64,000 bases of DNA from a virus (taxonomy: Duplodnaviria; Heunggongvirae; Uroviricota; Caudoviricetes), in IMG/VR virus record IMGVR_UViG_3300015615_001160, positions 18,526 to 82,525 of that record, one strand, 5' to 3'. Position 1 is the stretch's first letter, and every line of letters begins with the position of its first letter. Both the position numbers and the translations under genes were made by a program. The notes below the pieces were generated by a model. It saw nothing but the letters and a program-made list of their open reading frames with translations, did not search any database and had not been told where the DNA came from. Below, one piece after another: positions 26,871 through 46,372 of this stretch.

Positions 26871-28274
26871 TTAGTCTTCCGCGCGGTCACCCGCCGGACA
26901 CATCTTCACGAGTTTCGGGTCGAAGCGGCCGAGCACATCGACGAGGTCCGTCTGCGCCGACATCACTTGCGCGATGTCCTTGTAGACGCCCGGCACTTCG
27001 TCGAGGCCGGCGGAGAGCAGTTCCACGCCAGCGGCGGCGAGTTGTTTCTTCACCGCGCTCCACGTGAACGACTGCAATGCCTTGCTGCGGCTCATCACCC
27101 GGCCCGCGCCGTGCGACGCGCTGTGCAGCGACTCGGGCGAGCCCTTGCCGCGTACGACATAGCCCGGCGATGCCATGGAACCCGGGATAACACCCAGCAC
27201 TCCGGCGCCCGCCGGCGTCGCGCCCTTGCGGTGCACGACGACCTCGCGCTCTTCCCCATTCACGACATGCGTTTCTTTCCACGCGAAGTTGTGATGGTTT
27301 TCGATGTCGAGGATCACATGCCCACCGAGCTTTTTCGCGATGTGCCGGTGGATGAGTGCGTGGTTCGCCGCTGCGTAACGGCCCATCAAGTTCATCGCGG
27401 CCCAGTATTCCTGGCCGTCGGCGTCGTCGAGCGAGAGCCACGCGAGGTGCTTGAGTTCCTTCGGCAGGTGCTCGTGGCGGGCCATCGCGCGCTTGCTGTA
27501 GACTTCGCACACCTTCGCGCCGGTTCCGCGCGAGCCCGAGTGCGAGAGTAGCGCGAGATATTCTCCCGGCTCGAGGCCCAGGGTCTGTGCCTGCTCCGCA
27601 TCGACGGTGAACGCACCGAACTCGACGAAGTGGTTGCCACTTCCGCTCGTGCCGAGCTGCGACCACGCCTTGTCGCGCAGTTGCTTCGTCACGGGCGCCA
27701 CGGACCAGTCTTCGTCCATCACGTCGTGCTCGCGGCGCTGCTTGAACTGGCAGCCCATACCGAACCGCGTCTCGTCTTCGAGGATGTTCGCGAGCCGATC
27801 GCGCTGGCCGGCGAGGGTGCTCGCCTTGCGGTCATACACCGTCAGCTTCATGCGGCACGCGATGTCCACGCCGACGGCGTAAGGAATCACCGCGTTGTCG
27901 GTCGCGAGCACACCGCCGATCGGCAGGCCGTAGCCCACGTGCGCATCCGGCATCAACGCGCCCGCCACCGCGACCGGCAGCGCACACGCATTCGCCATTT
28001 GCTTCACCGCCTCGGCTTCGAGCCCTTCGCCCCACTGACGCCACGGCGCGAGTTCTGCGCGCGGCGTAAACGGCGGGCGATAGATCGCCCGCGCCAGCGG
28101 TGCCCGCAGCTCGTCGGCAAAGAAAGCCGTTGGATTGGCGACGATGTTGAAGATTTCGCCCTCCAGTAACGCGCCGTCATTTCCCCGCGCGATGAAGTTC
28201 TGGATGAACTCGTGCGCAACTTGGATCGGCCCGCCCATCGGCACGCCGAGGCGGATGAGGTCTTTGGTGTTCAT
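26871..28274 (-). CDS. rtcB: RtcB RNA ligase (joins 3'-phosphate/2',3'-cyclic phosphate to 5'-OH)
   Basis: RtcB family signatures MPDAHVGYGLPIGG, GSGNHF, SASHGAGR. Start chosen at MNTKDLIRLGVPMGG (ATG 28272-28274). An in-frame upstream ATG at 28307 would add 11 aa. Confidence 0.9.
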   Translation of the reverse strand: MNTKDLIRLGVPMGGPIQVAHEFIQNFIARGNDGALLEGEIFNIVANPTAFFADELRAPLARAIYRPPFTPRAELAPWRQWGEGLEAEAVKQMANACALPVAVAGALMPDAHVGYGLPIGGVLATDNAVIPYAVGVDIACRMKLTVYDRKASTLAGQRDRLANILEDETRFGMGCQFKQRREHDVMDEDWSVAPVTKQLRDKAWSQLGTSGSGNHFVEFGAFTVDAEQAQTLGLEPGEYLALLSHSGSRGTGAKVCEVYSKRAMARHEHLPKELKHLAWLSLDDADGQEYWAAMNLMGRYAAANHALIHRHIAKKLGGHVILDIENHHNFAWKETHVVNGEEREVVVHRKGATPAGAGVLGVIPGSMASPGYVVRGKGSPESLHSASHGAGRVMSRSKALQSFTWSAVKKQLAAAGVELLSAGLDEVPGVYKDIAQVMSAQTDLVDVLGRFDPKLVKMCPAGDRAED

Positions 28275-28408
28275 AGTGAGTTGGTTTGAAAATGTGCGTC
28301 GCCGCACGCGGACACAATGCGAGTGCGCAGCGGTGTTTGTTCTTTTTGTCGGAAAGTCTGCAGCCGGGAAGGGTTCATGCCCTCCCCGGCTGTACCACTA
28401 CTAGTTCC

Positions 28409-29218
28409 TCAATCGAGGAAGGCGACGTTCGCCATGGTGCGGGTGGTGTTCTCGGTGTTCATCCAGACTTGGTGCCAGCCATGCAGTGTGATGGTGGCGT
28501 GGTCCGGGTGCCGTATCGTGCCGCGCGCATAGACTTGCGCGTCACGTGTTCGGCGTTGCCAGCCCCAGTGGTTGGCTTCTGGCTGCTCCACGATGAGCTG
28601 CTTGTAGTGCTGGACTGTGATCCCATTCGGGAAACGCGCGCAGACATACACTTGCTCACCGCCAGTGCGGAACAGCTCTGCCACCCAGTGCGGCTTGCCA
28701 CCACCACCGCGGCTGATCGGCTCGTGACGATGCACGAGCTTCCCATCCACGTGCAGGCCTGGCACTGGCACGAAGAACCATTCACCCTGACGGATGAAGG
28801 CTCGGTTGTGACGCCGCACGCGTTGCCCGGGGTTCAAGCGAGCCTGATCCGCGGCTTCGCGAACCTTCGGCGGCAGCAGGGCGAGCTTCGCCTGCAATAC
28901 CGTCGAGGCACCGCCTGGCACCGCGGCCACGAACCATTCCCGCTCATCGTGACCACAGAGGAAGCGATCATTCGCTGCCGGTGTCTTGACGAGCAGAAGG
29001 AGGTGTCGGTCGTGTCGGTCGCACTGGAGCACATCCGCATCGAGGTGCGTTTCGCGCTGGGCGCTCAACTGCATCTCGAAAACCTGACCGCGTTTATCGG
29101 CGGCCAGGTCGATGGCATAGTCCGCACGTCGGCGGCTCCACGGTAGATTTTCTGGACGAACGATCCGGAACCGCGCGCCCATGTGGGCGAACTGGTTCGC
29201 GATCGATTTAGAGTTCAT
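28409..29218 (-). CDS. Hypothetical protein (about 270 aa) between rtcB and the nucleotidyltransferase gene
   Basis: Start chosen at MNSKSIANQF (29218). The longer ORF running to 29434 would overrun the tRNA-Lys-like gene and a hairpin. Confidence 0.5.
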   Translation of the reverse strand: MNSKSIANQFAHMGARFRIVRPENLPWSRRRADYAIDLAADKRGQVFEMQLSAQRETHLDADVLQCDRHDRHLLLLVKTPAANDRFLCGHDEREWFVAAVPGGASTVLQAKLALLPPKVREAADQARLNPGQRVRRHNRAFIRQGEWFFVPVPGLHVDGKLVHRHEPISRGGGGKPHWVAELFRTGGEQVYVCARFPNGITVQHYKQLIVEQPEANHWGWQRRTRDAQVYARGTIRHPDHATITLHGWHQVWMNTENTTRTMANVAFLD

Positions 29219-29230
29219 ATCTTGGAATTG

Positions 29231-29252
29231 GGTCGCGCGGCTTGGCGCGACC
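29231..29252. promoter_or_regulatory. Perfect 8-bp stem hairpin just upstream of the hypothetical gene start
   Basis: ggtcgcgc ggcttg gcgcgacc, followed on the plus strand by gattgcgttttctttcc. Confidence 0.3.
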
Positions 29253-29367
29253 GATTGCGTTTTCTTTCCGGGCCTTGCGAGCCCGAGACGACTTGATGCG
29301 GTAGTGGACAGACATTGGTTTTGATGGTGGTGGGTTGGTGAATTCGTGGCGTTGAAGACCACGATGT

Positions 29368-29439
29368 GAAAAAGTGAACCCGTAGGGACTTGCACCCTCC
29401 TCAGCCGCTTAAGAGGCGGCGGCTTCGCTCTCAAAGCTT
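29368..29439 (-). tRNA. tRNA-Lys(CTT)-like gene; non-canonical, no encoded CCA
   Basis: Minus-strand sense gaacccg aa gctt..aagc c gccgc ctcttaa gcggc .. gaggg tgcaagt cccta cgggttc a. Perfect 7-bp acceptor and 5-bp anticodon stem; loop cT-CTT-aa. T-loop is TGCAAGT (G55) and position 8 is A. A paralog with a TTT anticodon lies at 32518-32589. Confidence 0.55.
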
Positions 29440-29472
29440 CGGGTTCTTAAATTAAAGCAGTGGGGAGCGATG

Positions 29473-29513
29473 GCCCCGCCGGTGTTGCCCGATTGCAGTC
29501 ACCGGCGGGGCGT
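29473..29513 (-). terminator. Strong hairpin immediately after the nucleotidyltransferase stop codon (minus strand)
   Basis: 12-bp perfect GC-rich stem gccccgccggtg / caccggcggggc. It begins 8 nt past the TGA at 29521-29523. Confidence 0.5.
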
Positions 29514-29520
29514 CCTCCTC

Positions 29521-30297
29521 TCAAGCGGAGAGCGCGTAACGGCGGAAGAAGCTATTCAGCTCCTCGACGCTGCCTGCGGCGTCGTCGCGCTCGTTGAGCG
29601 CTTCGAGTCTTGGCAGTTCGGCCTCGATGAAGCGCGAGAGCACTTCGACCGGCGGCGCGACCGCCAGTTCGTCGCCGGCCTGTTTGCGCGCGATGAGTTC
29701 ATCGAGCGCGGCGCGCACGTCGGATTCTTCGAGTACACTCTCGACGAGTTGTGCGAAGAGCATGGGCACCTGGCCGAGTTGGCGCTCGATCCAGCGGCAC
29801 GCTAGCAGCGGTCGGAAGACGTAGAGATACTTCTTCAGGCTCACCATCTCGCGCCCGCGGAGGTAGTCGCGCCAGTTGCCGAAGGCCATGTGCAGGTAGT
29901 GGGCGAAGCAGCGCCGCTGCGAATAGAATTCCTCCGCGAGCGCGCCAAACTCGGCACTGAAGACCGGCTCGTGGCGATACACGATCGGTGACTTCAGCCA
30001 CTCGAGCAGCGGCGGGTTGCTCTTGCGGAGCAGGCGCAACGCCTTGCGCAGCTCCCAACCGCTGACGTCGAGATCGTCGGCGAGTGGGCGCTCGATCACG
30101 TCGCGCCGATCCTCGACCGAGAGATACCAGTCGCGCCGATGCACGTAGAGAAAGCGCACGTCGTAGTCGCTGTCGCGCGAGGCAAAGCCCCACGCACGGC
30201 TGCCGCTCTCGCACGCGAAGAGCACGCGGACGTTTCGCTCGGCCTCGACCTGAGCGAGCGCGTCGCGGACGCGCTGGAAAACTTCGTTCCCATTCAT
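29521..30297 (-). CDS. Predicted nucleotidyltransferase (Pol-beta/MNT superfamily) in the RtcB neighbourhood
   Basis: 258 aa. GS...D.D motif in VLFACESGSRAWGFASRDSDYDVRFLYV. A helical C-terminal domain follows. Confidence 0.65.
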   Translation of the reverse strand: MNGNEVFQRVRDALAQVEAERNVRVLFACESGSRAWGFASRDSDYDVRFLYVHRRDWYLSVEDRRDVIERPLADDLDVSGWELRKALRLLRKSNPPLLEWLKSPIVYRHEPVFSAEFGALAEEFYSQRRCFAHYLHMAFGNWRDYLRGREMVSLKKYLYVFRPLLACRWIERQLGQVPMLFAQLVESVLEESDVRAALDELIARKQAGDELAVAPPVEVLSRFIEAELPRLEALNERDDAAGSVEELNSFFRRYALSA

Positions 30298-30372
30298 GGG
30301 AACCTCCTTTCTGTTTGAGATGTGATTGGCGACGGGCGTCGCCGATGTTGTTGATCGCCTTGGCGTGCCTGC

Positions 30373-30900
30373 TTAGATGGGGAGCCGCACTTTTGCGTAG
30401 AGCAGGCCGTCGATGAATTCATCATCGCGGAAGTAGTATGCGCGCAATCGGCCTTCGTGCGTGTAGCCGGCCTTCTCCAGCACCCGAGCGGAAGCCGGGT
30501 TGCGTGCGAAGACATGGGCGTGCAACCGCACGAGGTTTAGCTCTCGGAAGGCCCATTCCGTCATCGCGTCGAGCGCTTCCGTGGCGATCCCGCGGCCCCA
30601 GAGTGTCTCGCCGAGCCAGTAGCCGATTTCCGCGGTATGCTGGCGCGCGGTTACACCGCTGGGGTTCACTTCGACGCCGATGCCACCGACGATCTGGTCG
30701 TCGATGGCGATGCCGAAGTTGGTTTCCGGATCCTGTTTAGTGGCAAAGTCGATCCACCATTCCGCATTCTGCAGCGAATAGGGATGGGGGATGTGTAACA
30801 TATTGCGCGCAACGCTGTAGCTGCCGATGTGCGTGGAAATCGACTCGGCGTCGCCGGGACGAAAGGAACGAATGGTGGATTTGGAGAGGGTGAGTTGCAT
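30373..30900 (-). CDS. GNAT family N-acetyltransferase (RimJ/RimL-like)
   Basis: 175 aa. IGYWLGETLWGRGIATEALDAMTEWAF ... ARNPASARVLEKAGYTHEGRLR matches Acetyltransf_3-type. Confidence 0.75.
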   Translation of the reverse strand: MQLTLSKSTIRSFRPGDAESISTHIGSYSVARNMLHIPHPYSLQNAEWWIDFATKQDPETNFGIAIDDQIVGGIGVEVNPSGVTARQHTAEIGYWLGETLWGRGIATEALDAMTEWAFRELNLVRLHAHVFARNPASARVLEKAGYTHEGRLRAYYFRDDEFIDGLLYAKVRLPI

Positions 30901-30930
30901 GGGGTGGATGGTGAAAGTTTCAGCCCGAAA

Positions 30931-30958
30931 CCCCGGTGGAGACAGAGATCCACCGGGG
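30931..30958. repeat. Palindromic (REP-like) element, copy 1
   Basis: ccccggtgga gacagaga tccaccgggg: a 10-bp perfect stem. It is near-identical in design to copy 2 at 31394. Confidence 0.5.
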
Positions 30959-31393
30959 TTGCGAGGTTACCGGATTGCAGCGCGAACCCGGTGTGCAAGT
31001 TCGGTCGGGCATGAAGTTCGGCGCCGGTGGAAGGGGTGATTTTTGGATTAGTACGATGGTTCGCGTGTTGATGGACGGATCATCAGCGTATCTCTCAGCA
31101 GGGCTCCGGGTCCGGCTCGCTCGCTCAGCAGAATCCGAAGCGGCACGCCCGCCAGCGATGTGCTGTGGGGCAACCGGTCGAACGGAGTTCCTTTGCGAGT
31201 ATGTCTCGCGATAGGCTGAGATCTCAGTCGAACAGCTCCGAGGAGGAAAACCCCGATGAGGATGACGCCATGACCCAGAATGGCTGGGTCGGGCATGGTG
31301 GGTGGGTGGGTTGGAAAATGAGCAAGCCCGCCCGATTGATCTCGGAAGGGATCGAGCGCGGAGAGCCGTGTGGGCGTTCGCGCGGAGGATCAC

Positions 31394-31458
31394 CCCGGCG
31401 GAGCGAGTTCTCCGCCGGGGCTTGTTCCTCCCTCGCAATTTTTTGTTTCACGTTTCGT
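31394..31458 (+). terminator. Palindromic element copy 2 plus a T-tract; a plus-strand rho-independent terminator-like structure
   Basis: ccccggcgga gcgagttc tccgccgggg followed by cttgttcctccctcgcaattttttgtttc. Confidence 0.4.
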
Positions 31459-32245
31459 CCGTCTCCGTTGCGGTTGGCTTGACGCCGCGCGTGTGGAGAG
31501 CGGGGAGCAGGGTCGACAGGTCGTTCATCACGAACGTCTGGCCTGCGGTGGACGCTTCGAGCGTTTGCAGGAAGCGGAGGGTGGCGAGTGCGGGCTGGCC
31601 TTCGATGAGGCGCGCGGCATTGGCGAGGTTGCGCAGCGCGGCGGATTCGGCGCGGGCGCGTTCGAGCGCGGCCTGGCCTTCCTGCTTCGCCTTGAGCACT
31701 TCGCTGAAGGCCTTGCGCAGTTCGCCCGGCAGCATCACATCGCGCACGTCGGCCGCGTGGACTTGCACGCCGACAGCTTCCGCTTGTGGCGCGATGAGTT
31801 CGCGGAGTTGCGCGCCGATGGCGACACGCTGCGTGAGCAGGGCTTCCATCGGCACTCCGGCAACGACGGTGCGAACGGCGGCCTGCGTGGCGTTGTAAAT
31901 GTGGGCCGCGTAGTTGTCCGCAGCCTGCACGCTCTTCGCCGCATCCACGATCTGCGTGGTGAGCACGACGCTGAGCTTCACGCCGACGTTGTCGGCGCTG
32001 AGCACTTCCTGGCCCGCGACCTGGAGGAGCGTCTTGCGGATGTCCACGGCGACGAGGCGGTAGTTGCGGCCCCAGCGGATGTGACGGCCCGCTGGCAGCG
32101 TGCTCACGAGCTGGCCTTCGTGGAAGAGCAGGCCCGCGTAGCCTTCGGTGACGATGAACTCGTGGTGGTAGCGAGTGCACGCAATATTAGTCACGAGCAA
32201 ACCGGCGCCAAGGAGAGCGACGATGAGAATATCTTGGGTGGTCAT
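31448..32245 (-). CDS. Band-7 / SPFH (stomatin-prohibitin) domain membrane protein
   Basis: 265 aa with an N-terminal TM segment (ILIVALLGAGLLVTNIA) followed by an SPFH domain. Band-7 proteins are recurrent partners of RtcB-type RNA repair operons. Confidence 0.8.
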   Translation of the reverse strand: MTTQDILIVALLGAGLLVTNIACTRYHHEFIVTEGYAGLLFHEGQLVSTLPAGRHIRWGRNYRLVAVDIRKTLLQVAGQEVLSADNVGVKLSVVLTTQIVDAAKSVQAADNYAAHIYNATQAAVRTVVAGVPMEALLTQRVAIGAQLRELIAPQAEAVGVQVHAADVRDVMLPGELRKAFSEVLKAKQEGQAALERARAESAALRNLANAARLIEGQPALATLRFLQTLEASTAGQTFVMNDLSTLLPALHTRGVKPTATETDET

Positions 32246-32292: not shown

Positions 32293-32391
32293 CACCGCTT
32301 GTTCGCGGGCAGCGTGGCGTGAGCCGGCTGCGCAGGACGAAGTCGCGACTGCCTCTCGAGCAAGCTCGGGGCGGGTCACCGTCACGGATCG

Positions 32392-32420
32392 GTGGATGGA
32401 TGGGATTCGAACCCAGTCGG
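32392..32420 (-). other. tRNA 3'-end-like fragment with a canonical T-arm (GGGTTCGAATCCC) and no matching 5' acceptor strand
   Basis: Minus sense ...gactgggttcgaatcccatccatcca. No complementary acceptor strand was found within 120 nt. It may be an att-type remnant or a decayed unit. Confidence 0.3.
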
Positions 32421-32517
32421 CGGTGAGCCGATGACCAGCCGCCGGATGGTCGATGTGCAGGACCAGTCGCGGCGATGCCGCCTGGCTGCGGGTGTATTTT
32501 TCCGGCGGAAGAGGAAA

Positions 32518-32589
32518 TGAACCCGTAGGGACTTGCACCCTCCTCAGCCGCTTAAAAGGCGGCGGCTTCGCTCTCAAAGCTTCGGGTTC
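32518..32589 (-). tRNA. tRNA-Lys(TTT)-like; paralog of the 29368 unit
   Basis: Identical to the 29368 unit except the anticodon loop is cT-TTT-aa. Confidence 0.55.
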
Positions 32590-32594
32590 GGAAA

Positions 32595-32672
32595 TGGATA
32601 GTCGCGGCAGGATTTGCACCCGCACTGGCTGCGTTCTCGACGCAGTGCCTCTTCTCGTTGGGCTACGCGACC
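32595..32672 (-). tRNA. tRNA-like, Leu anticodon GAG, class-I architecture
   Basis: Acceptor ggtcgcg/cgcgact; anticodon stem ctgcg/cgcag with loop tcGAGaa (C33); T-arm gcggg TGCAAAT cctgc. Confidence 0.45.
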
Positions 32673-32753
32673 GTCGGTGATTTTGGAAATAGTCCTCCGG
32701 CATTGGGTGGCCGAAGGCCTGGAGCAAGTCTCGCGAAGCGAGACGCGTGGAAA

Positions 32754-32828
32754 GGCTCCCGTGGTGGGACTCGCACCCACTAGGACTCGTGTGAAAGACG
32801 AGACGCTCGGCTCTTTGCATTCACGGGC
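32754..32828 (-). tRNA. tRNA-Glu(TTC)-like
   Basis: Anticodon stem ctcgt/acgag with loop cT-TTC-ac; T-arm gtggg TGCGAGT cccac. Confidence 0.45.
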
Positions 32829-32840
32829 ATTTGCTGAAAG

Positions 32841-32931
32841 TGGCGGAACGCGGAGGGCATGCTCCCCAACCCGCAACGCGGATCGATCTCCTTAGCACGG
32901 AGTCCCGGCACGCTCGTCCGGTTCACGTTCC
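32841..32931 (-). tRNA. tRNA-Ser(GCT)-like, class II with a long variable arm
   Basis: Acceptor ggaacgt/gcgttcc + G + CCA; anticodon loop gT-GCT-aa; variable arm ccgc gtt gcgg; T-loop AGCATGC. Confidence 0.5.
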
Positions 32932-32937
32932 ACATCG

Positions 32938-33011
32938 TGCCCGCGGCGAGATTTGCACTCGCACTGTCCGAGGTTTGAGCTCGGTGGCTCTGCTCGTTGG
33001 CCTACGCGGGC
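32938..33011 (-). tRNA. tRNA-like, Leu anticodon CAA, class I
   Basis: Acceptor gcccgcg/cgcgggc perfect; anticodon stem ccgag/ctcgg with loop cT-CAA-ac; T-arm gcgag TGCAAAT ctcgc. Confidence 0.5.
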
Positions 33012-33022
33012 GTGGAAAAAAA

Positions 33023-33094
33023 TGCTCCCGGTCGGAGTCGCACCGACACTGCGCGGGGTTTAAGTCCGCTGCCTCTGCGTTGGGCTACGGGAGC
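33023..33094 (-). tRNA. tRNA-like, Leu anticodon TAA, class I
   Basis: Acceptor gctcccg/cgggagc perfect; loop cT-TAA-ac; T-arm gtcgg TGCGACT ccgac. Confidence 0.45.
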
Positions 33095-33103
33095 TTTGAA
33101 AAA

Positions 33104-33990
33104 TGGGACTGCGGGTTGAGACTAAACCCACAGGCATCATCTCCTTCGCGCGGATTATTCGAGGCTTGCGGCCTCTATTCCCGGCTTGTCCTCGGCGACT
33201 GACCCGAAAGTCACATCGACGAGCGATGACACGATTGCCTTTGTTAACGAGGTGGCATTTCCCCGTAGATGGTCAGCTACTCTACCTCCGTCCTACCGCC
33301 AGCCTTGCGGGCTGTGAGAGGCGCGACCCTCGACGTGCGGACTCGGGTAAACTTCGCGGGCCTTGCGGGCCGTGGAAGTCTCCATTGCCTTGCGGCTGAA
33401 GAATTAAATCGTTTTCGCTGACGACCGGCGGCGTCTTTGCATTTTTTTGGCGATGCAGGATTTCTCCTGCGACCTCCGGCTTTCGAAGCCGACGCTCTGT
33501 TCTGAGCTAATCGATAACCCACCACGATGTGCGCCGCCTGTCGTGCCGAATCCTTTTGGGACTCGATATGCGACACACCGTGTGACTTTCCCTTGCGGGT
33601 ACTCATCGTGTCCTGGCGATCGCGTCCGCCTCCTTGCCTTTTGGGCTCGGCAGCGTCCGCTTCCGCGCGACATGCAGCAGGCGCCTCGTTTGCGGCTTGG
33701 CGTCTACTGCTCCCCTTGTTCCCTCAACACTGGACGTTTTGCTGGAAAGGCACGCCTTGCGAAGGGGCGTTCCTGCTCCTACGGAGTTACCCTCGGAACA
33801 GTTTCCCTTTCCCGTCGTCATGTATACCTCGGCCGCATTTGACTGCGACAAGGCTATGGGACCTGGGTTTGCTTGAATGTCCTCGAGTGAACGAGGCGCG
33901 GGCGTGTGGGCCGTTTCCGCTTTTGGCCGTCTCGCGACGGTTTATCTTTCATCCCTTGCGGGACCTGGAGATCAAGCTCCCCAGTTTTTA
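33104..33990 (-). ncRNA. About 880-bp non-coding segment inside the array with a recurring CCTTGCGGG motif; candidate large structured RNA and/or decayed tRNA units
   Basis: No convincing ORF and no regular spacers. CCTTGCGG(G) occurs at 33304, 33361, 33385, 33590, 33764 and 33953. At least one tRNA-like unit (33448-33516) is embedded. Confidence 0.3.
33448..33516 (-). tRNA. tRNA-like unit with a good D-arm (gctc/gagc) and a T-loop-like anticodon loop ttCGAaa
   Basis: The acceptor is imperfect and the assignment is uncertain. Confidence 0.25.
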
Positions 33991-34018
33991 AATAGTGAAA
34001 TGGGTGATAGTAAGAAAG

Positions 34019-34095
34019 TGGTCCCGGCGGCAGGAGTTGCACCCGCACTGGCTCCGGTCTGAGCGGAGTGTCTCTGCTTGTTGGACTACGCCGGG
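34019..34095 (-). tRNA. tRNA-like, Leu anticodon CAG, class I
   Basis: Acceptor cccggcg/cgccggg perfect + A + CCA; anticodon stem ctccg/cggag with loop cT-CAG-ac; T-arm gcggg TGCAACT cctgc. Confidence 0.5.
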
Positions 34096-34104
34096 AAAAA
34101 GGAG

Positions 34105-34180
34105 TGGTGCTCTCGGCAGGAGTTTCGCCCGCAACCTCCGCGTTCGAAGCGCGGCACTCTAGACATTGAGCTACGAGAGC
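34105..34180 (-). tRNA. tRNA-Arg(TCG)-like
   Basis: Acceptor gctctcg/cgagagc; D-stem gctc/gagt; anticodon stem ccgcg/cgcgg with loop cT-TCG-aa; CCA encoded. Confidence 0.5.
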
Positions 34181-34191
34181 ATGGATGGAAA

Positions 34192-34268
34192 TGGCTGCCC
34201 CGGATGGATTCGCGCCATCAACCTCCCGGTTCAGAGCCGGGCGCTCTCGCTGTTTGAGCTACAGGGCA
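34192..34268 (-). tRNA. tRNA-Gln(CTG)-like
   Basis: D-stem gctc/gagc; anticodon stem cccgg/ccggg with loop cT-CTG-aa; T-arm gatgg CGCGAAT ccatc; disc G + CCA. Confidence 0.55.
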
Positions 34269-34273
34269 ACATG

Positions 34274-34345
34274 ATCCGCCAACCGGAGTTGCACCGGTCT
34301 CTCGCCGATACCAGCGGCGTGCGTCGCTCACAACGCTTTGGCGGA
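34274..34345 (-). tRNA. tRNA-Thr(GGT)-like
   Basis: Acceptor tccgcca/tggcgga perfect; D-stem gcgt/acgc; anticodon stem cgccg/cggcg with loop cT-GGT-at; T-arm accgg TGCAACT ccggt. Confidence 0.5.
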
Positions 34346-34355
34346 GTTTGAAATG

Positions 34356-34429
34356 ATCAGGCACCTCGGTGCTGCCCCGAGTATCTCGCCGATCCGAACG
34401 GCGCGGATTGCTGTCTTCCTCGTGCCTGA
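34356..34429 (-). tRNA. tRNA-Pro(CGG)-like
   Basis: Acceptor tcaggca/tgcctga perfect; anticodon stem cgccg/cggcg with loop tT-CGG-at; T-arm ctcgg GGCAGCA ccgag. Confidence 0.5.
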
Positions 34430-34431
34430 AT

Positions 34432-34572
34432 GAAATAACTGGAGCCACGGGGAATGCTCGCGCGGCAGCGCTTCGACACGAGTCGTGGAGCGCTGGCTGC
34501 ATAGCGGCAGGAGCCGCAATCGCACCCCGATCTGCGCAATGCCAATGCGTCGTCTGGCTATTGGACTATGGC
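34432..34572 (-). ncRNA. About 140-nt structured repeat. It has a nested-hairpin 5' half and a tRNA-like 3' half (possible Ala GGC loop). It is a paralog of the element at 35940-36080
   Basis: The ggagcgctggctgcat and caatcgcacc blocks are shared with the 35940 copy. There is a nested hairpin cagcgct...cgac acga gtcg...agcgctg. Confidence 0.3.
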
Positions 34573-34579
34573 CCCGACA

Positions 34580-34655
34580 TGGACGCGCGCCCCGGACTCG
34601 CACCGGGTAATTCGGTTTTGCAGACCGATGGTTCGACGGCTTTGCCTTGCGCGCG
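34580..34655 (-). tRNA. tRNA-Cys(GCA)-like
   Basis: Acceptor cgcgcgc/gcgcgcg; anticodon stem tcggt/accga with loop cT-GCA-aa; T-arm cccgg TGCGAGT ccggg; T + CCA. Confidence 0.5.
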
Positions 34656-34667
34656 TTTTTTTGTGAT

Positions 34668-34743
34668 GGGGGTGACCGTCGGGATTCGCACCCGAATCTT
34701 CTGGTTCACGGCCAGAAACTCTGACTCTTGAGCTACGGCCACA
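34668..34743 (-). tRNA. tRNA-His(GTG)-like
   Basis: Acceptor gtggccg/cggtcac (one G.U); anticodon stem tctgg/ccaga with loop cc-GTG-aa (C33); T-arm tcggg TGCGAAT cccga. Confidence 0.4.
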
Positions 34744-34766
34744 GCTTCTTCCTGTGTTGTGGAAAG

Positions 34767-34843
34767 TGGATCCTCCGGCCGGCGCTGCCCCGGCATGGTC
34801 TTCTTTACGAGAGAAGTGCATTGCTGGCCTCTGCCACGGAGGA
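34767..34843 (-). tRNA. tRNA-Thr(CGT)-like
   Basis: Acceptor tcctccg/cggagga perfect; anticodon stem cttct/agaag with loop cT-CGT-aa; T-arm gccgg GGCAGCG ccggc; T + CCA. Confidence 0.5.
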
Positions 34844-34853
34844 ACGGGATGAA

Positions 34854-34930
34854 TGGTGCTCCCGCGAGGACTTGCACCTCGAGCTTCCGCCTTCGCAGGG
34901 CAGCGTGCAGGACTCTTACACTTCGGGAGC
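34854..34930 (-). tRNA. tRNA-Arg(GCG)-like
   Basis: Acceptor gctcccg/cgggagc; anticodon stem ctgcc/ggcgg with loop cT-GCG-aa; T-arm cgagg TGCAAGT cctcg; A + CCA. Confidence 0.5.
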
Positions 34931-34939
34931 TAATGAAAA

Positions 34940-35014
34940 TGGTGCGCCATGCCGGTGCCGCCCCGGCGCTGTGTCTTTGGAAGAGACGCGTGCTCGCTGT
35001 TACACCAATGACGC
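34940..35014 (-). tRNA. tRNA-Gly(TCC)-like
   Basis: Acceptor gcgtcat/atggcgc; anticodon stem cgtct/agaca with loop cT-TCC-aa; T-arm gccgg GGCGGCA ccggc; A + CCA. Confidence 0.5.
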
Positions 35015-35024
35015 TTTGGAAAAA

Positions 35025-35099
35025 TGGTGGCTGCTTCCGGTATCGCGCCGGACTCCCCTCGGCTTCAGCGAGGTGCTAATCTATCTCAGCTACACAGCC
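35025..35099 (-). tRNA. tRNA-Phe(GAA)-like
   Basis: D-stem gctg/tagc; anticodon stem cctcg/cgagg with loop cT-GAA-gc; T-arm tccgg CGCGATA ccgga; A + CCA. Confidence 0.5.
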
Positions 35100-35153
35100 G
35101 TTCGACAGGCTCACGGCCTGCGGCCCTTCGACGAAGTTTCGTCTTTGGGCAAA
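35100..35153. other. Short non-tRNA spacer with two small hairpins (ggcc tgc ggcc; gacga agtt tcgtc followed by tttggg)
   Basis: It does not fold as a cloverleaf. It may be an intra-array processing or terminator-like element. Confidence 0.3.
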
Positions 35154-35154
35154 G

Positions 35155-35228
35155 TGGTCCCTCCGCGCGGTATCGCGCCGCGGTCTCTCGCTTATCGGGC
35201 GAGGGCTCTGCTTTTGAGCTACGGAGGG
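35155..35228 (-). tRNA. tRNA-Ile(GAT)-like
   Basis: Acceptor ccctccg/cggaggg perfect; D-arm gctc aaaagca gagc; anticodon stem ctcgc/gcgag with loop cc-GAT-aa (C33); T-arm cgcgg CGCGATA ccgcg; A + CCA. Confidence 0.5.
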
Positions 35229-35237
35229 TTTTGGAAA

Positions 35238-35311
35238 TGGTCGCTCGAGGTGGTAACGCTCCACCGTTTGTCGGATGTCGGCCGGCCGTTCTGCTTTTGA
35301 ACTATCGAGCG
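35238..35311 (-). tRNA. tRNA-Val(GAC)-like
   Basis: Acceptor cgctcga/tcgagcg + A + CCA; D-arm gttc aaaagca gaac; loop cc-GAC-at; T-arm ggtgg AGCGTTA ccacc. Paralog of the next unit, with compensatory stem changes. Confidence 0.5.
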
Positions 35312-35322
35312 ATGCGAAAGAA

Positions 35323-35396
35323 TGGTCGCCCGACGTGGTAACGCTCCACGGTCTTCCGGATGTGAGCCGGCCGTTCTCCTTTTGAACTATCAGGCG
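35323..35396 (-). tRNA. tRNA-Val(CAC)-like
   Basis: Acceptor cgcctga/tcgggcg; T-stem cgtgg/ccacg (compensatory relative to ggtgg/ccacc in the previous unit); loop cT-CAC-at. Confidence 0.5.
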
Positions 35397-35409
35397 AAAA
35401 TGAAAATGA

Positions 35410-35481
35410 TACCCGCGCCCGGTAATGCTCCGGGGTTTTCTGATGAAGAATCAGCCGTGCTGACGATTGCACCATGCGGGT
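35410..35481 (-). tRNA. tRNA-like unit, anticodon region ambiguous (possibly CTT)
   Basis: D-stem gtgc/gcac perfect; T-arm cccgg AGCATTA ccggg. The anticodon stem and loop can be drawn two ways (ttCTTca with a 4-bp stem, or a 5-nt loop). Confidence 0.3.
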
Positions 35482-35489
35482 TTTTGAAA

Positions 35490-35564
35490 TGGCTCCTCCC
35501 CTTGGCATCGCACCAAGCTCACACCGCTTAACAGGCGGGCCGCACACTCTGTGCGTTGAGAGGA
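35490..35564 (-). tRNA. tRNA-Asn(GTT)-like
   Basis: Acceptor tcctctc/gggagga; D-stem cgca/tgcg; loop cT-GTT-aa; T-arm cttgg TGCGATG ccaag; G + CCA. Confidence 0.45.
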
Positions 35565-35575
35565 ATGTGTCGTTT

Positions 35576-35650
35576 TACTCCCGGCAGGAGTTGCACCTGC
35601 GTAGTTCCATTTAGAAGATGGATGCCTATGTACTGCTCGGCCACGGGAGC
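35576..35650 (-). tRNA. tRNA-Arg(TCT)-like
   Basis: Anticodon stem tccat/atgga perfect with loop cT-TCT-aa; T-arm gcagg TGCAACT cctgc; no CCA. Confidence 0.45.
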
Positions 35651-35661
35651 GTGGATAGAAA

Positions 35662-35736
35662 GGGTCGCGCGCCTCGGTGCTGCCCCGAGTGTCTCCTCGT
35701 CCCAAGCGAGGCGGGTTGCTGTCTCCCTCGCGCGCG
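35662..35736 (-). tRNA. tRNA-Pro(TGG)-like
   Basis: Acceptor cgcgcgc/gcgcgcg; anticodon stem cctcg/cgagg with loop cT-TGG-ga; T-arm ctcgg GGCAGCA ccgag. Confidence 0.45.
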
Positions 35737-35759
35737 TCACGGTGTCGTGTCGTGTGAAA

Positions 35760-35836
35760 TGGCGGCCTGTGCGGGCTTTGCTCCCGCGCCCTTCCGCTCG
35801 ACAGGCGGCTGCTCTTCGTGGCTGAGCTAACAGGCC
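35760..35836 (-). tRNA. tRNA-Asp(GTC)-like
   Basis: Acceptor ggcctgt/acaggcc perfect; D-stem gctc/gagc; loop cT-GTC-ga; T-arm gcggg AGCAAAG cccgc; G + CCA. Confidence 0.5.
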
Positions 35837-35846
35837 ATGGTGAAAT

Positions 35847-35935
35847 TGGTGGGTTGTGTCGGTAATGCTCCGACGCTGGTCCGGCTGGACATCCGCTTTA
35901 CAGGCGGCTCGCGATCTTTACGTGACTAACAACCC
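35847..35935 (-). tRNA. tRNA-Tyr(GTA)-like, class II
   Basis: Acceptor gggttgt/acaaccc perfect + A + CCA; loop cT-GTA-aa; variable-arm hairpin gtcc agcc ggac; T-arm gtcgg AGCATTA ccgac. Confidence 0.5.
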
Positions 35936-35939
35936 GAAA

Positions 35940-36160
35940 TGGTTGCGGGACGTGGAATGCGTGGCGCGGTAGCGCCGTTGCTGGACGACGCGGAGCGCTG
36001 GCTGCATGGACGCCGGAGCGTCAATCGCACCACGATACGAGGGCGTATGAAACTCTCTTGGTTTTGCCGCTCCGGCGGCTATGCGAAGTGCGCTCCGCGT
36101 CCATGGTGTGAACGTGCTTGCGCGCGAGTGCATTCAACCTTCCCGCGATTGAATGGTGAA
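35940..36160 (-). ncRNA. Structured repeat(s) not resolved as tRNA; includes the paralog of the 34432 element
   Basis: Shares ggagcgctggctgcat...caatcgcacc with 34432-34572. Contains hairpins ggcgc ggta gcgcc and gcgctccg/cggagcgc. Confidence 0.3.
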
Positions 36161-36161
36161 A

Positions 36162-36236
36162 TGGTGGACCGCCACGGCTTTGCACCGTGCTCTTCCGCTT
36201 GCGAGGCGAATGACCTCCTGAATGATCGAGCGGCCC
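36162..36236 (-). tRNA. tRNA-Ala(CGC)-like
   Basis: Acceptor gggccgc/gcggtcc; anticodon stem ttcgc/gcgga with loop cT-CGC-aa; T-arm cacgg TGCAAAG ccgtg; A + CCA. Confidence 0.45.
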
Positions 36237-36244
36237 AGGAAAAT

Positions 36245-36321
36245 TGGTAGCGGGGGCCGGATTTGAACCGGCGAATTGACGGCTTATGAGGCCGTTGCCT
36301 TAACCACTTGGCGACCCCGCA
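36245..36321 (-). tRNA. tRNA-Met(CAT); the most canonical unit (GG in the D-loop, TTCAAAT T-loop), with a 1:72 mismatch (initiator-like)
   Basis: gcggggtcgccaaGTGGTTAAggca acggc cT-CAT-aa gccgt ... gccgg TTCAAAT ccggc ccccgct A CCA. Confidence 0.6.
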
Positions 36322-36333
36322 GTCTGTGGAAAG

Positions 36334-36408
36334 TGGCACAGCGTCTCGGTGCTGCCCCGAGCCCGCGGAGTTTTGGAGACTCTGCTGCGCGAGCTGGCGC
36401 CCGCTGTG
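36334..36408 (-). tRNA. tRNA-like unit (acceptor and T-arm clear; body unresolved)
   Basis: Acceptor cacagcg/cgctgtg; T-arm ctcgg GGCAGCA ccgag. Confidence 0.3.
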
Positions 36409-36426
36409 TTTCACGATTGGAAAAAT

Positions 36427-36500
36427 TGGTGCGGTCAGCCGGACTTGCACCGGCATCCTCTGATTGGCACTCAGACATCCTTCTCTTGAACGATGACCGC
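36427..36500 (-). tRNA. tRNA-Gly(GCC)-like
   Basis: Acceptor gcggtca/tgaccgc perfect + A + CCA; anticodon stem tctga/tcaga with loop gT-GCC-aa; T-arm gccgg TGCAAGT ccggc. Confidence 0.5.
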
Positions 36501-44310: not shown

Positions 44311-44961
44311 ATGAGCAGCTCGAAAACGCCTGTCGTCCTCCTAGTCAGAGTATCCACAGTTCGGCAAGAGACCTCACGCCAGATTTCGGAGTTGGAGGCT
44401 TACGCTGCCAGCAAGGGCTACGAGGTCGTCGAACTGTGCAAGGAGACGATCTCGGGCCGGGCTGACGAGGACGACCGCCACGGGTTGAAGCGAGCCGAAG
44501 CACTCGCCCGCGCTGGAGCGATCAAGAAAGTCCTCGTCCACGAGGTTTCCCGTTTGGCCCGGCGGAACAGCATCACACATCGGTTCGTTGAGGTGTTGGA
44601 GGAATGCGGAGTTTCGCTCTACTGGCACGCGCAGGGGATTGAAACCCTCCTGCCGAGCGGCAAGCGAAACCCAGCAGCGGGCATCATGCTCGCGCTGCTC
44701 GCCGAAATGGCGCGCGGGGAGGTTGAGACGCTGCGGGAGCGGATCAAGTCCGGGTTGGCCGAAGCTCGGCGCAAAGGGGTGAGGCTGGGCAGGCCGGAGG
44801 GCACATCGCTCGACCGGGACATCTTCCTTCAAAAGCACAAGGACATCGCACGATGGCTCAAGGCTGGTCAGTCGATCCGCAACGCTGCCAAGATCACGGG
44901 GAAGGGTATCTCGACGGTGCAGCGCGTGAAGACGGCGCTCGCCGAGCATGCATGCGCATAG
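44311..44961 (+). CDS. Small serine recombinase (resolvase/invertase family)
   Basis: N-terminal VVLLVRVSTVRQ with the catalytic Ser, and a C-terminal HTH. Confidence 0.8.
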   Translation: MSSSKTPVVLLVRVSTVRQETSRQISELEAYAASKGYEVVELCKETISGRADEDDRHGLKRAEALARAGAIKKVLVHEVSRLARRNSITHRFVEVLEECGVSLYWHAQGIETLLPSGKRNPAAGIMLALLAEMARGEVETLRERIKSGLAEARRKGVRLGRPEGTSLDRDIFLQKHKDIARWLKAGQSIRNAAKITGKGISTVQRVKTALAEHACA

Positions 44962-45455
44962 CGATGGGAACAAACCTTGAACTACCTAACTGGACAGCGG
45001 ATGCAGGCGGAAGAGAGCGATGGCTGGCTTGGATCGAGTCTCAGACCAAGCGGTGCTATCGTCGAGCAAAGGAGTGGGTAGCTCGATGCGACTCGAATAG
45101 ATCGTTACCCACGCGCTCCGAGTGGAGAGCAGCAATTACCAAGGCAGTGCGTGAGTCGGATGGGGTGGCATTTTTTTCTCGGCTACCGCTCTCGCTCGGG
45201 ACGGAACGAACCAACACTCATGCGCTCTGGCCGTCGGTCGATCACTGCGAGCACCCTACTGTGGCAGCCGTCGTGATCGAAACGCGGCTCATAAACGACA
45301 TGAAGACGATCCTGTCGCAGACGGAATTCCGTGAGGTGATTGCTCACCTCGCCGTGACTCTTCAAATCCAGCCGCAGCAACTACCGTCCGACTGGAAGAG
45401 CAACAGAAGCTTTGCGAGAGAACAGATCACTGACGAGCCACCGCTCCCTGCCTGA
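44952..45455 (+). CDS. Hypothetical protein
   Basis: ORF starting MRIAMGTNLELPNWT, overlapping the recombinase stop. Confidence 0.35.
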   Translation: MRIAMGTNLELPNWTADAGGRERWLAWIESQTKRCYRRAKEWVARCDSNRSLPTRSEWRAAITKAVRESDGVAFFSRLPLSLGTERTNTHALWPSVDHCEHPTVAAVVIETRLINDMKTILSQTEFREVIAHLAVTLQIQPQQLPSDWKSNRSFAREQITDEPPLPA

Positions 45456-45466
45456 GTCTCTGGAGG

Positions 45467-46240: not shown

Positions 46241-46372
46241 GAGATTGCGAGGCTGGATCGGGTGGCGGAGCTGGCATCCGATTCTAGCCCCTCGGACTGA
46301 TGTGTATTTGTTCCCTTATCAGAACAAAACCTTGTCGTTTCGCTCAGTGGTAGATATTACGCGCTGAGTCCT

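Follow-up and report, generated by a model that had tools for sequence, protein, structure and literature searches.

How does a tRNA with a leucine anticodon fare without a long variable arm? In the textbook view such an arm is required for bacterial tRNA-Leu. However, the stretch of DNA analysed here (64,000 nucleotides, hereafter the window) contains a tRNA array in which four units carry the leucine anticodons GAG, CAA, TAA and CAG on a class I framework. The original prediction was that these units may be mis-acylating or decoy species, or else tRNAs charged by a non-standard identity mechanism, and it raised the question of whether they arose by anticodon switching from another isotype. 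Thus, several questions are raised. Are the four units genuine tRNA genes? Where do they come from? Which amino acid do they carry? Are they used in translation at all?

All four short leucine units are genuine tRNA genes. ARAGORN calls each of them on the minus strand (Table 1), they score 42.6-49.9 bits with the Rfam tRNA model RF00005, whose gathering score is 29, and the minimum-energy fold given by ViennaRNA is in all four cases the same cloverleaf with no extra arm, consisting of an acceptor stem of 7 bp, a D stem of 3 bp, an anticodon stem of 5 bp with a 7-nt loop and a T stem of 5 bp. By these three tools, the class I architecture, the leucine anticodons at positions 34-36 and the discriminator A73 are all as predicted for the four units. 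The variable loops are short, as had been claimed, but not of 4-5 nt, as all four have 5 nt. A long variable arm was sought by re-folding and is ruled out by the 5-nt loops that both ARAGORN and ViennaRNA return; it would have no room, since the units measure only 72-74 nt up to the discriminator. A misplaced anticodon in Leu(GAG) is likewise rejected: inspection by eye found no alternative register giving a paired stem, and the oddity of this loop is explained by C33, which is simply present. The long arms that had been assigned to the Ser(GCT) and Tyr(GTA) units are there as well. In addition to A73, all four leucine units have A46 G47 U48 in the variable loop, and a CCA end is encoded in Leu(CAG) alone. 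The D-loop of Leu(UAA) is shorter (CAACGCAGA), position 18 being absent, and the CUN-reading units have A37 rather than G37. A scan for a sigma-70-like promoter detected none.

Table 1. Coordinates of the tRNA genes and neighbouring features in the window
Feature	Position	Strand	Details
RtcB RNA ligase	26871..28307	-	PF01139, E 3.5e-87
Solitary tRNA-Lys(CUU)	29374..29446	-	Same as array Lys(UUU) (32518-32589) except anticodon base 34
RlaP nucleotidyltransferase	29521..30297	-	PF10127, E 5.7e-92
GNAT acetyltransferase	30373..30900	-	PF13302
SPFH/Band-7 protein	31448..32245	-	PF01145
Whole tRNA array	32368..36500	-	About 35 units on one strand, most amino acids
Class I tRNA-Leu(GAG)	32599..32672	-	74 nt to A73; no CCA encoded; variable loop CCAGT (5 nt); anticodon loop UCGAGAA (C33); D-loop CAACGAGAAGA (A18 G19); T-loop TGCAAAT (G55); ARAGORN: gag, 32599-32672, 74 nt
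tRNA-Glu(UUC)	32756..32828	-	G73; T-loop of the G55 type
Class II tRNA-Ser(GCU)	32841..32931	-	Long variable arm; 91 nt with CCA; missed by ARAGORN
Class I tRNA-Leu(CAA)	32938..33011	-	74 nt to A73; no CCA encoded; variable loop ACAGT; A18 G19 / G55; ARAGORN: caa, 32937-33011, 75 nt
Class I tRNA-Leu(UAA)	33023..33094	-	72 nt to A73; variable loop GCAGT; T-loop TGCGACT; ARAGORN: taa, 33023-33094, 72 nt
GOLLD RNA core	33113..33583	-	RF02032; 165.4 bits (threshold 150); E 1e-44; match spans the full model, 1-416
tRNA-like element inside GOLLD	33447..33516	-	RF00005, 38.7 bits
Class I tRNA-Leu(CAG)	34019..34095	-	74 nt to A73, plus encoded CCA; variable loop CCAGT; A18 G19 / G55; ARAGORN: cag, 34019-34095, 77 nt with CCA counted
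Class II tRNA-Tyr(GUA)	35847..35935	-	Long variable arm; 89 nt

A D-arm motif, GTAGNCCAAC(2-4)AGAGNCA, is common to the four units and occurs four times in the window, as against 0.00 expected from shuffles. The units are each other's nearest neighbours, with a mutual identity of 62-74% versus a mean of 46% to the other units. A search with a D-arm pattern that did not include the anticodon matched at least 120 IMG/VR contigs; among the matches listed, 106 of 124 sit in tRNAs of 72-78 nt, 105 of which have a leucine anticodon and one of which has an anticodon that ARAGORN could not call. Together with a MAG locus (L127) and additional loci from viruses and metagenomes, the IMG/VR matches listed gave 225 unique units. 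Every one of them has a leucine anticodon (TAA 80, GAG 68, CAA 41, CAG 17, TAG 15 and AAG 4), A73 is found in 222 and a 5-nt variable loop NNAGU in 219, and A46, G47 and T48 occur in 205, 214 and 215, respectively. The D-arm signature of the family, G10 N11 C12 C13 A14 A15 C16...R18/G19...A20a G21 A22 G23 N24 C25 A26, is matched by all four window units and, among the 225 recovered units, occurs only with leucine anticodons. Given this exclusiveness and the mutual clustering of the four units, an origin by anticodon switching from another isotype is not supported. Switching of base 34 within an isotype does occur, as the two lysine genes of the window illustrate, and a Leu(TAG) at one related locus (L225) and a Leu(CAG) at another (L236) differ at base 34 alone. 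A scan of genome contigs with an A18-specific pattern retrieved one true relative, the Kofleriaceae MAG contig L127, and nine chance matches. The four units are thus members of an extensive family of short-arm leucine tRNAs, found in phages and mobile tRNA arrays, that has received little discussion; such genes are unusual but already catalogued, and no new mechanism is implied.

The four units are also conserved and structurally constrained tRNA genes. Across the 225 units, stem pairs are canonical in 98% of cases versus 63% after shuffling; most stem positions show four to six pair types, with two at 7-66, while the search regex itself dictated 53-61. No filter was applied to the 11-24 pair, and it covaries in the family (CG 131, TA 67 and AT 21). 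Gene order in the array is the same in three IMG/VR contigs (L132, L139 and L141), and the changes between the window units and their orthologues there are compensatory. This last point bears on the reading that the units are decaying pseudogenes, the domesticated remnant of a phage tRNA array for which selection has gone in this genome. Such a reading could draw on the finding of no phage structural genes in the window, whereas a terminase and an M15 peptidase adjoin the array in L141, the closest relative, and on the loss, in three of the four leucine units, of the CCA that their orthologues encode. Moreover, insertions break up two neighbours, Ala(GGC) and a unit with the anticodon of Met(CAT), so that the window's copy of the array shows some decay. 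However, all four leucine units fold as perfect cloverleaves with their identity elements intact, and A18/G55 in Leu(GAG) is a coordinated rather than a random change, so that decay is quite improbable as an account of these four genes.

Which amino acid would they carry? A D-loop of the form A14 A15 Y16 N17 R18 G19 N20 A20a G21 A22 on a 3-bp stem is common to class I and class II leucine tRNAs of the same loci, and these positions are the ones listed as the identity set of E. coli tRNALeu (Fan et al., 2019; PMC6614811). A strict D-arm regex matches 59% of short leucine tRNAs and 28% of long ones, 5.9% of other short tRNAs and 0% of long-armed Ser and Tyr tRNAs. The window units share loop length, A14, A15, G19, A20a and A73 with class II tRNA-Leu and differ from it in that position 18 holds A, or is missing, instead of G, and in that positions 12 and 23 form a C-G instead of a G-C pair. 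It had been proposed that the units may be mis-acylated; read as deliberate recoding, this would insert another amino acid at leucine codons, and in general terms loss of the class II arm does remove one distinction between leucine and class I isotypes. The family, however, retains leucine anticodons throughout, A73 almost throughout, and the leucine-type D-loop and U48, known identity elements for E. coli LeuRS; G3:U70 is absent; and the leucine anticodons lack C35, which ArgRS needs, as well as the other class I anticodon determinants. Besides, the same arrays carry a separate, properly marked gene for every other amino acid, and the other units of the window's array keep their own identity marks (G3:U70 in Ala, C73 in His, U73 in Cys and G73 in Gln, Asp, Asn and Glu). 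Mis-acylation is thus scarcely credible.

Because the family keeps the leucine D-loop (A14 A15 .. G19 .. A20a), U48 and A73, the likeliest mechanism suggested by these sequences is ordinary, anticodon-independent leucylation by host LeuRS. Streptomyces coelicolor has a type I tRNALeu(CAA) whose variable loop measures 5 nt; the cognate enzyme, ScoLeuRS, leucylates it in vitro, and deletion of the arm from a type II tRNALeu leaves charging unharmed (PMC6614811). The non-standard identity mechanism that had been invoked is not needed, although part of that idea finds some support: E. coli LeuRS was unable to charge the Streptomyces type I tRNA, so that charging may depend on the host LeuRS (PMC6614811). 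In its strong form, the units would work only with a Streptomyces-like LeuRS or with a dedicated factor encoded by the element, and the leucine-specific domain of ScoLeuRS indeed conferred the ability to charge type I tRNALeu (PMC6614811). However, hmLeuRS too charged the type I tRNA (PMC6614811), the window ORFs that were scanned include no synthetase gene, and members of the family are found in phages that infect, among others, E. coli, Vibrio, Pseudomonas and Actinobacteria, a range of very different hosts that argues for broad acceptance by LeuRS. The need for a special enzyme is therefore highly improbable. Some features do speak against leucine charging or against working isoacceptors. 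G18G19-U55C56 counts as one of the leucine identity elements of E. coli, and neither G18 nor U55 is present in the window units; in addition, three of the four lack CCA, Leu(GAG) has C33 and the CUN readers have A37. With these weighed, the four units are probably working leucine isoacceptors of a distinct class I tRNA-Leu lineage that travels with phages and mobile long arrays.

An outline of how such isoacceptors would work is as follows: the array would be transcribed and processed, and CCA would be added to the three leucine units without it. Host LeuRS, which does not read the anticodon, would then charge them with leucine by way of the retained A73, U8-A14, A15-U48, G19-C56 and A20a and the leucine-type D-loop geometry with its 3-bp D stem, the long arm presumably being dispensable for leucylation. 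In decoding, GAG would read CUU/CUC, CAG would read CUG, and UAA and CAA would read UUA/UUG. The leucine units would thereby belong to an almost full reserve of tRNAs with an RtcB-RlaP RNA-repair cassette linked to it, and this reserve may plausibly keep translation going when host tRNAs are damaged or in short supply, as in phage infection, under tRNA-targeting toxins or during translational stress.

In its one-strand density, isotype coverage and synteny in unrelated contexts, the array, whose roughly 35 units exceed the minimum of 20 genes for this class, is a long, horizontally transferred tRNA array, and resolvase, integrase and defence genes lie near it. It adjoins an RNA-repair cassette made up of RtcB, RlaP, GNAT and SPFH. 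Arrays retrieved by the leucine pattern alone are flanked by homologues of RtcB, RlaP and SPFH with identity of up to 89-91%. Look-ups of the exact proteins gave no match for RlaP or SPFH, and for the GNAT just one metagenome contig of 2 kb. RlaP functions in the repair of tRNA 3' ends, and an earlier account (PMC8421152) describes long arrays that have RtcB as a neighbour. GOLLD RNA is not a constant partner of these arrays: the tRNA-free interval of 924 nt that holds it (33095-34018), between Leu(CAG) and Leu(UAA), is absent in the three syntenic contigs, where the two genes are 5-6 nt apart, and among 16 related loci only L236 has GOLLD.

A less expected feature of the array than the short leucine arms is its elbow. 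G55 is present in every checkable unit apart from Met(CAT) (36245-36321) and a fragment resembling a tRNA (32368-32443); the change from G18/U55 to A18/G55 is array-wide and covaries across about 2,000 tRNAs. Met(CAT), probably the initiator, is the most frequent exception, with a canonical elbow in 20 of 60 G55-dominated arrays sampled. In the library searched, literature on a natural A18/G55 elbow or phage class I tRNALeu yielded nothing specific beyond PMC6582537 and PMC6614811. This elbow, C33 and the absence of CCA could be in keeping with RNAs not tuned for translation, and, with the RNA-repair cassette next to the array, they lend something to the idea of decoys or sponges, that is, tRNAs that are transcribed and, with little or no use in translation, absorb tRNA-targeting nucleases or toxins and so spare the housekeeping pool. 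The sponge idea has been put forward for the long-array tRNAs of Anabaena, where cleavage of the operon tRNAs was seen (PMC8421152). However, decoys should resemble the target, and the leucine units differ from it at conserved sites, having no long arm, G55 and C33; moreover, A73, the leucine D-loop, U48 and the coupling of anticodon to isotype across the 225 units are needs of charging and decoding, not of nuclease binding. We thus regard a decoy role as unlikely. More tentatively, and still with considerable doubt, the array might be a deliberate set of alternative architecture (the A18-G55 elbow, short-arm leucine tRNAs, C33 and T54-A58 swaps) that travels with the RtcB-RlaP-SPFH cassette and evades nucleases, transferases and modification enzymes reading canonical features such as T54-Psi55 of the T-loop, the anticodon loop or the long variable arm. 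If this is the case, the element, or a host under attack, could keep translating while canonical tRNAs are destroyed.

The window units and several hundred relatives indicate that mobile elements routinely carry short-arm leucine tRNAs that keep every other leucine identity mark. The family supports the view that bacterial LeuRS recognises the D-loop and core together with A73, not the arm, and provides a natural substrate series for probing that recognition. For annotation, short leucine calls in phage or island tRNA arrays are genuine genes, not software errors. As to the ways in which mobile elements safeguard the tRNA pool or supply a replacement for it, more may be learned from the A18/G55 elbow and the conserved repair cassette than from the leucine units themselves.

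Several known systems can be compared with this locus. Contrary to the original premise, a class II structure is not universal in bacterial tRNA-Leu, short-arm genes being annotated in many cultured phages and known from mycobacterial clusters and from Streptomyces. Genes annotated as tRNA-Leu are found in Vibrio phage KVP40 (tRNA-Leu-3, 78 nt), Escherichia Felixounavirus vB_EcoM_ESCO50 (77 nt) and Corynebacterium phage Lederberg (77 nt), and further matches under this annotation in Gordonia, Streptomyces, Pseudomonas and Cronobacter phages and in M. abscessus prophages; except for Lederberg, these are BLAST matches of 74-87% identity, and length was confirmed for the three named phages only. 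In Lederberg, the sequence of which was read, the gene (anticodon CAA) adjoins an RtcB-like ligase and resembles the window units in its D-arm (GTAGCCCAAC..GGCAGAGGC), its 5-nt variable loop GCAGT and A73. It has the canonical elbow G18 G19 / U55, as do most T55 members of the IMG/VR family, in contrast to A18 G19 / G55 in the window, and the window copy differs from this and the other phage copies in lying in a bacterial island without phage structural genes. A short-loop tRNA-Leu was mentioned in passing in mycobacterial tRNA clusters in 2019 (PMC6582537); compared by description, such a cluster is also horizontally acquired and has GOLLD inside, placed between tRNAs and with a pseudo-tRNA embedded in it, but it has a single short-loop isoacceptor and a host of another phylum.

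The type I tRNALeu(CAA) of S. coelicolor, likened here by description and not by sequence, also has a 5-nt loop, coexists with type II isoacceptors and depends less on its elbow than type II tRNA does; it differs in being an essential chromosomal housekeeping gene in which A73 is no identity element (PMC6614811). The class I tRNA-Leu of animal mitochondria shares the short variable loop and A73 but belongs to another lineage and sequence style, the window units having full-size D and T arms and bacterial-type leucine D-loops. Human mitochondrial tRNA is not charged by ScoLeuRS (PMC6614811). In the passages searched of the 2021 account of the Anabaena long array, there is no mention of a G55 elbow or class I tRNA-Leu, and the gene flanking that array encodes an HNH endonuclease, in contrast to RlaP, GNAT and SPFH in the window (PMC8421152). 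Nevertheless, what is described in those passages and by Morgado and Vicente (2018; PMC5966550) is much like the array of the window: dozens of genes on one strand covering most amino acids, horizontal spread, RtcB or other RNA-processing neighbours, and tRNAs unlike the housekeeping ones.

The short-arm Leu units of the window are real tRNA genes, of a kind that is known but under-described. ARAGORN at default settings finds 15 tRNAs, nearly all on the minus strand at 32.5-36.5 kb, and once ARAGORN at a lower threshold is combined with an Rfam E-value scan and a simple cloverleaf finder, the array grows to about 35 units, all on one strand, for most amino acids. In the ARAGORN drawings, each of the four Leu units has a 7-bp acceptor stem, U8 and A9, a 3-bp D stem, a 5-bp anticodon stem with a 7-nt loop holding the anticodon at 34-36, a 5-nt variable loop, a 5-bp T stem and discriminator A73. 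They score 42.6-49.9 bits with the Rfam tRNA model (gathering score, 29), and the ViennaRNA minimum-energy structure is the same cloverleaf in all four, so that re-folding uncovers no long arm. The original prediction of short-arm units with Leu anticodons at 34-36, set beside truly long-armed Ser(GCT) and Tyr(GTA) units, therefore holds. The window has four copies of the D-arm motif common to the four units, GTAGNCCAAC(2-4)AGAGNCA, where shuffled sequence predicts 0.00, and no further copy was found there with three mismatches allowed. Position 33 of Leu(GAG), where U is near-universal, is C (anticodon loop UCGAGAA), as it is in 48 of the 68 distinct Leu(GAG) family members among the matches listed, and the CUN-reading units have A37, as against the G37 typical of bacterial tRNA-Leu(CUN).

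Features of the tRNA array and its surroundings (window positions)
Feature	Position	Strand	Remark
ORF of 8,595 codons	54-25841	+	PATR autotransporter-type repeats, PA14 domain
RtcB	26871-28307	-
tRNA-Lys(CUU)	29374-29446	-	solitary; between RlaP and RtcB
RlaP	29521-30297	-
GNAT	30373-30900	-
ORF		-	between SPFH and GNAT
SPFH protein	31448-32245	-	downstream of array
tRNA-like fragment	32368-32443	-	downstream end of array
tRNA-Lys(UUU)	32518-32589	-
tRNA-Leu(GAG)	32599-32672	-	ARAGORN; variable loop CCAGT
tRNA-Ser(GCT)	32841-32931	-	long extra arm, 91 nt; missed by ARAGORN
tRNA-Leu(CAA)	32937-33011	-	ARAGORN; variable loop ACAGT
tRNA-Leu(UAA)	33023-33094	-	ARAGORN; variable loop GCAGT
GOLLD RNA (RF02032) core	33113-33583	-	165 bits, E 1e-44; between Leu(CAG) and Leu(UAA)
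tRNA-like element	33447-33516	-	inside GOLLD
tRNA-Leu(CAG)	34019-34095	-	ARAGORN; variable loop CCAGT
Interrupted tRNA unit	~34432-34575	-
tRNA-Tyr(GTA)	35847-35935	-	ARAGORN; long arm, 89 nt
Interrupted tRNA unit	~35945-36090	-
tRNA-Met(CAT)	36245-36321	-	canonical elbow

The four units belong to a family of class I tRNA-Leu genes in phages and mobile tRNA arrays. The D-arm motif was found in at least 120 IMG/VR contigs; 106 of the 124 matches listed fall within 72-78-nt tRNAs called by ARAGORN, and the anticodon is Leu in 105 of these 106, being not callable in the other. Since the anticodon lies outside every search pattern, this exclusive pairing is an independent result. A second pattern, joining the D-arm to a G55-type T-loop, occurs in 20 viral and at least 120 metagenome contigs, and when genomes were scanned for an A18-specific pattern, a single true relative emerged, a contig of a Kofleriaceae MAG with a 25-tRNA array. 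From the matches listed, 225 distinct units were parsed, with anticodons TAA (80), GAG (68), CAA (41), CAG (17), TAG (15) and AAG (4); among them A73 is present in 222, a 5-nt variable loop in 219, A46 in 205, G47 in 214, T48 in 215 and an encoded CCA in 138. Stem positions in these listed units are 98% canonical versus 63% when shuffled, a figure partly inflated by filtering for pairing; most show four to six pair types, and the 11-24 pair, which was unfiltered, covaries (CG 131, TA 67, AT 21). Three IMG/VR contigs, L132, L139 and L141, share the gene order of the window from Gly(GCC) through Leu(CAG)-Leu(UAA)-Leu(CAA)-Leu(GAG)-Lys(UUU), and their Leu genes differ from those of the window by compensatory stem changes. 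Just past the array, L141 encodes the large subunit of a terminase together with an M15 peptidase, so the closest relatives are phage-borne.

Are these units charged with leucine? Neither the long arm nor the anticodon is among the identity elements of E. coli tRNALeu, and removal of the arm from type II tRNALeu leaves charging unharmed (Fan et al., 2019; PMC6614811). According to consensus sequences, class I and class II Leu units of the same loci share a D-loop, A14 A15 Y16 N17 R18 G19 N20 A20a G21 A22, on a 3-bp stem in both classes. A strict regular expression for this D-arm matches 59% of the short-armed Leu units and 28% of the long-armed ones, 5.9% of other short tRNAs and no long-armed Ser or Tyr, and the last base of the 5-nt variable loop is U48, which partners A15. 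Because the Leu D-loop is shared and U48 is kept, we infer that the host LeuRS would charge the four units with leucine in the standard, anticodon-independent manner. Presumably transcribed, processed and, in the three that lack an encoded CCA, completed by CCA addition, they would then decode CUU/CUC, CUG and UUA/UUG on the ribosome. The non-standard identity mechanism once proposed is not needed; Leu identity nucleotides are retained. Nor is mis-acylation, the charging of the units with another amino acid, which is extremely improbable, as identity elements of other isotypes are absent. Descent from another isotype by anticodon switching, which had been suggested for checking, is out: the four units resemble one another most, with 62-74% identity, whereas their identity to other units averages 46%. 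Switching within an isotype is seen, in Lys CUU/UUU of the window and in Leu TAG/CAG of L225 and L236, two other array loci.

The main caveat to leucylation is that E. coli LeuRS fails to charge the S. coelicolor chromosomal type I tRNALeu(CAA), which has a 5-nt loop and is a substrate of both ScoLeuRS and human mitochondrial LeuRS (Fan et al., 2019; PMC6614811). This failure could mean that the units need a special LeuRS, a requirement that is very unlikely for a family found in phages of many host phyla. The second caveat is that the window units lack G18/U55, the usual contact of D-loop and T-loop.

This elbow variant, A18/G55, is array-wide and not Leu-specific. With the exception of Met(CAT) at 36245-36321, all checkable window units carry G55 in the T-loop and have no D-loop GG, most having AG where GG is expected. 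Among the 225 listed Leu units, 96 combine GG with T55 and 127 combine G55 with no GG, with two exceptions. Over loci L001-L268 (IMG/VR, metagenome and MAG), the matches listed hold 2,126 unique tRNAs of all isotypes: T55 occurs with GG in 1,010 and without it in 54, and G55 with GG in 84 and without it in 912, giving 138 exceptions to the coupling. The association persists inside 40 arrays mixing both types (odds ratio, 221), which makes it per-molecule covariation of the 18-55 tertiary contact, beyond a lineage marker; the Leu(GAG) orthologue is canonical in L132, L139 and L141 and A18/G55 in the window. A54-T58 replaces T54-A58 in 152 G55 tRNAs. Met(CAT) is the commonest T55 exception (20 of 60 G55-dominated arrays). 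The window copy, alone among the array units, has a canonical elbow (GG in the D-loop, TTCAAAT as T-loop) and may be an initiator because of its 1-72 mismatch, T1 opposite T72. No description of a natural A18/G55 elbow was found in the searchable literature. Cleavage by some CdiA toxins falls between T54 and Psi55. MenT3 uses the long arm of tRNA-Ser, showing that recognition of canonical tRNA features exists, and one may speculate that array tRNAs are built to evade factors of this kind. A decoy or sponge role has already been proposed for L-array tRNAs (Santamaria-Gomez et al., 2021; PMC8421152); a decoy should mimic canonical tRNAs, whereas the Leu units deviate at exactly the universal sites, which makes such a role unlikely here.

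The GOLLD-containing 924-nt block at 33095-34018 is as a whole an insertion relative to L132, L139 and L141, as Leu(CAG) and Leu(UAA) are 5-6 nt apart there; among 16 related loci, GOLLD is present in L236 only (4531-4960), at another array position. Homologous inserts, 65 and 67 nt long and both including CATGCAGCCAGCGCTCC...GCATT, split two array units, Ala(GGC), which has G3:U70, and a second Met(CAT), directly after the T-loop TGCGATT. Their orthologues in L132, L139 and L141 have no inserts, and other loci gave no convincing match, only a single one of 32 nt in L227. The inserts may be tiny introns or a miniature mobile element. These two interrupted neighbours, the loss of CCA from three Leu units and the absence of phage genes from the window would suit a decaying remnant, a distinctly unlikely reading given that the Leu folds are intact and their changes compensatory. 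Many array units bear the identity marks expected from their anticodons (Ala G3:U70, His C73, Cys U73, and G73 in Gln, Asp, Asn and Glu).

Adjoining the array is a cassette in the order RtcB - tRNA-Lys - RlaP - GNAT - ORF - SPFH (26871-32245, minus strand). Beside arrays found solely via the Leu pattern, homologues of RtcB occur at about 30 loci (up to 89% identity), of RlaP at 8 (up to 91%) and of SPFH at about 10, recurring at L139, L141, L175, L225, L236 and others, which points to the array and RNA-repair cassette as a conserved module. The two tRNA-Lys genes, identical but for base 34, bracket the RlaP-GNAT-SPFH block as a 72-nt direct repeat and look like a recent duplication with anticodon change. 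The fragment at the downstream end of the array has a canonical GGGTTCGAATCCC T-arm and receives a weak Ser(cga) call from ARAGORN at lowered threshold only; possible identities are a degenerate class II tRNA and an integration-site remnant. The surroundings are those of a genomic island within a GC-rich bacterial replicon, with GC of 0.64-0.69 in the 8,595-codon ORF versus 0.52-0.65 in the island to its right. Right of the array are ExoD, ClpS and a mobility/defence-like cluster (44311-63682) with a resolvase, a Sel1-repeat protein, a tyrosine integrase with DUF6900, an SNF2-type helicase, an adenine methyltransferase, a type III restriction enzyme with endonuclease domain and a PLD-like protein weakly similar to DISARM DrmC; no phage structural genes were seen in the window.

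The Leu units alone are of modest interest; what deserves following is the signature at family level, together with the A18/G55 elbow and the conserved repair cassette. Short-arm tRNA-Leu genes of phages and arrays are already known and thinly described, and no paper treating them as a family was found in the searched literature. The variable loop is short in a mycobacterial tRNA-Leu(TAG) encoded in a tRNA cluster, and GOLLD, itself enclosing a pseudo-tRNA, lies within a cluster of 32 tRNAs (Behra et al., 2019; PMC6582537). Long arrays are horizontally transferred, have RtcB among their neighbours and are induced by translational stress, according to Santamaria-Gomez et al. (2021; PMC8421152), and RlaP extends damaged 3′ ends of RNA by one or two nucleotides and is required if repaired tRNA is to be charged again (2025 preprint). 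BLAST against GenBank phages matched the family to genes annotated as tRNA-Leu from several hosts: Corynebacterium phage Lederberg (77 nt, UUG), Vibrio phage KVP40 (tRNA-Leu-3, 78 nt), Escherichia Felixounavirus (77 nt), phages of Gordonia, Streptomyces, Pseudomonas and Cronobacter, and M. abscessus prophages, lengths being taken from the first three only and sequence from Lederberg only. The Lederberg tRNA-Leu resembles the window units in its D-arm motif, 5-nt variable loop and A73, and, as in the window, an RtcB-like ligase is encoded nearby, in Lederberg directly upstream of the tRNA.
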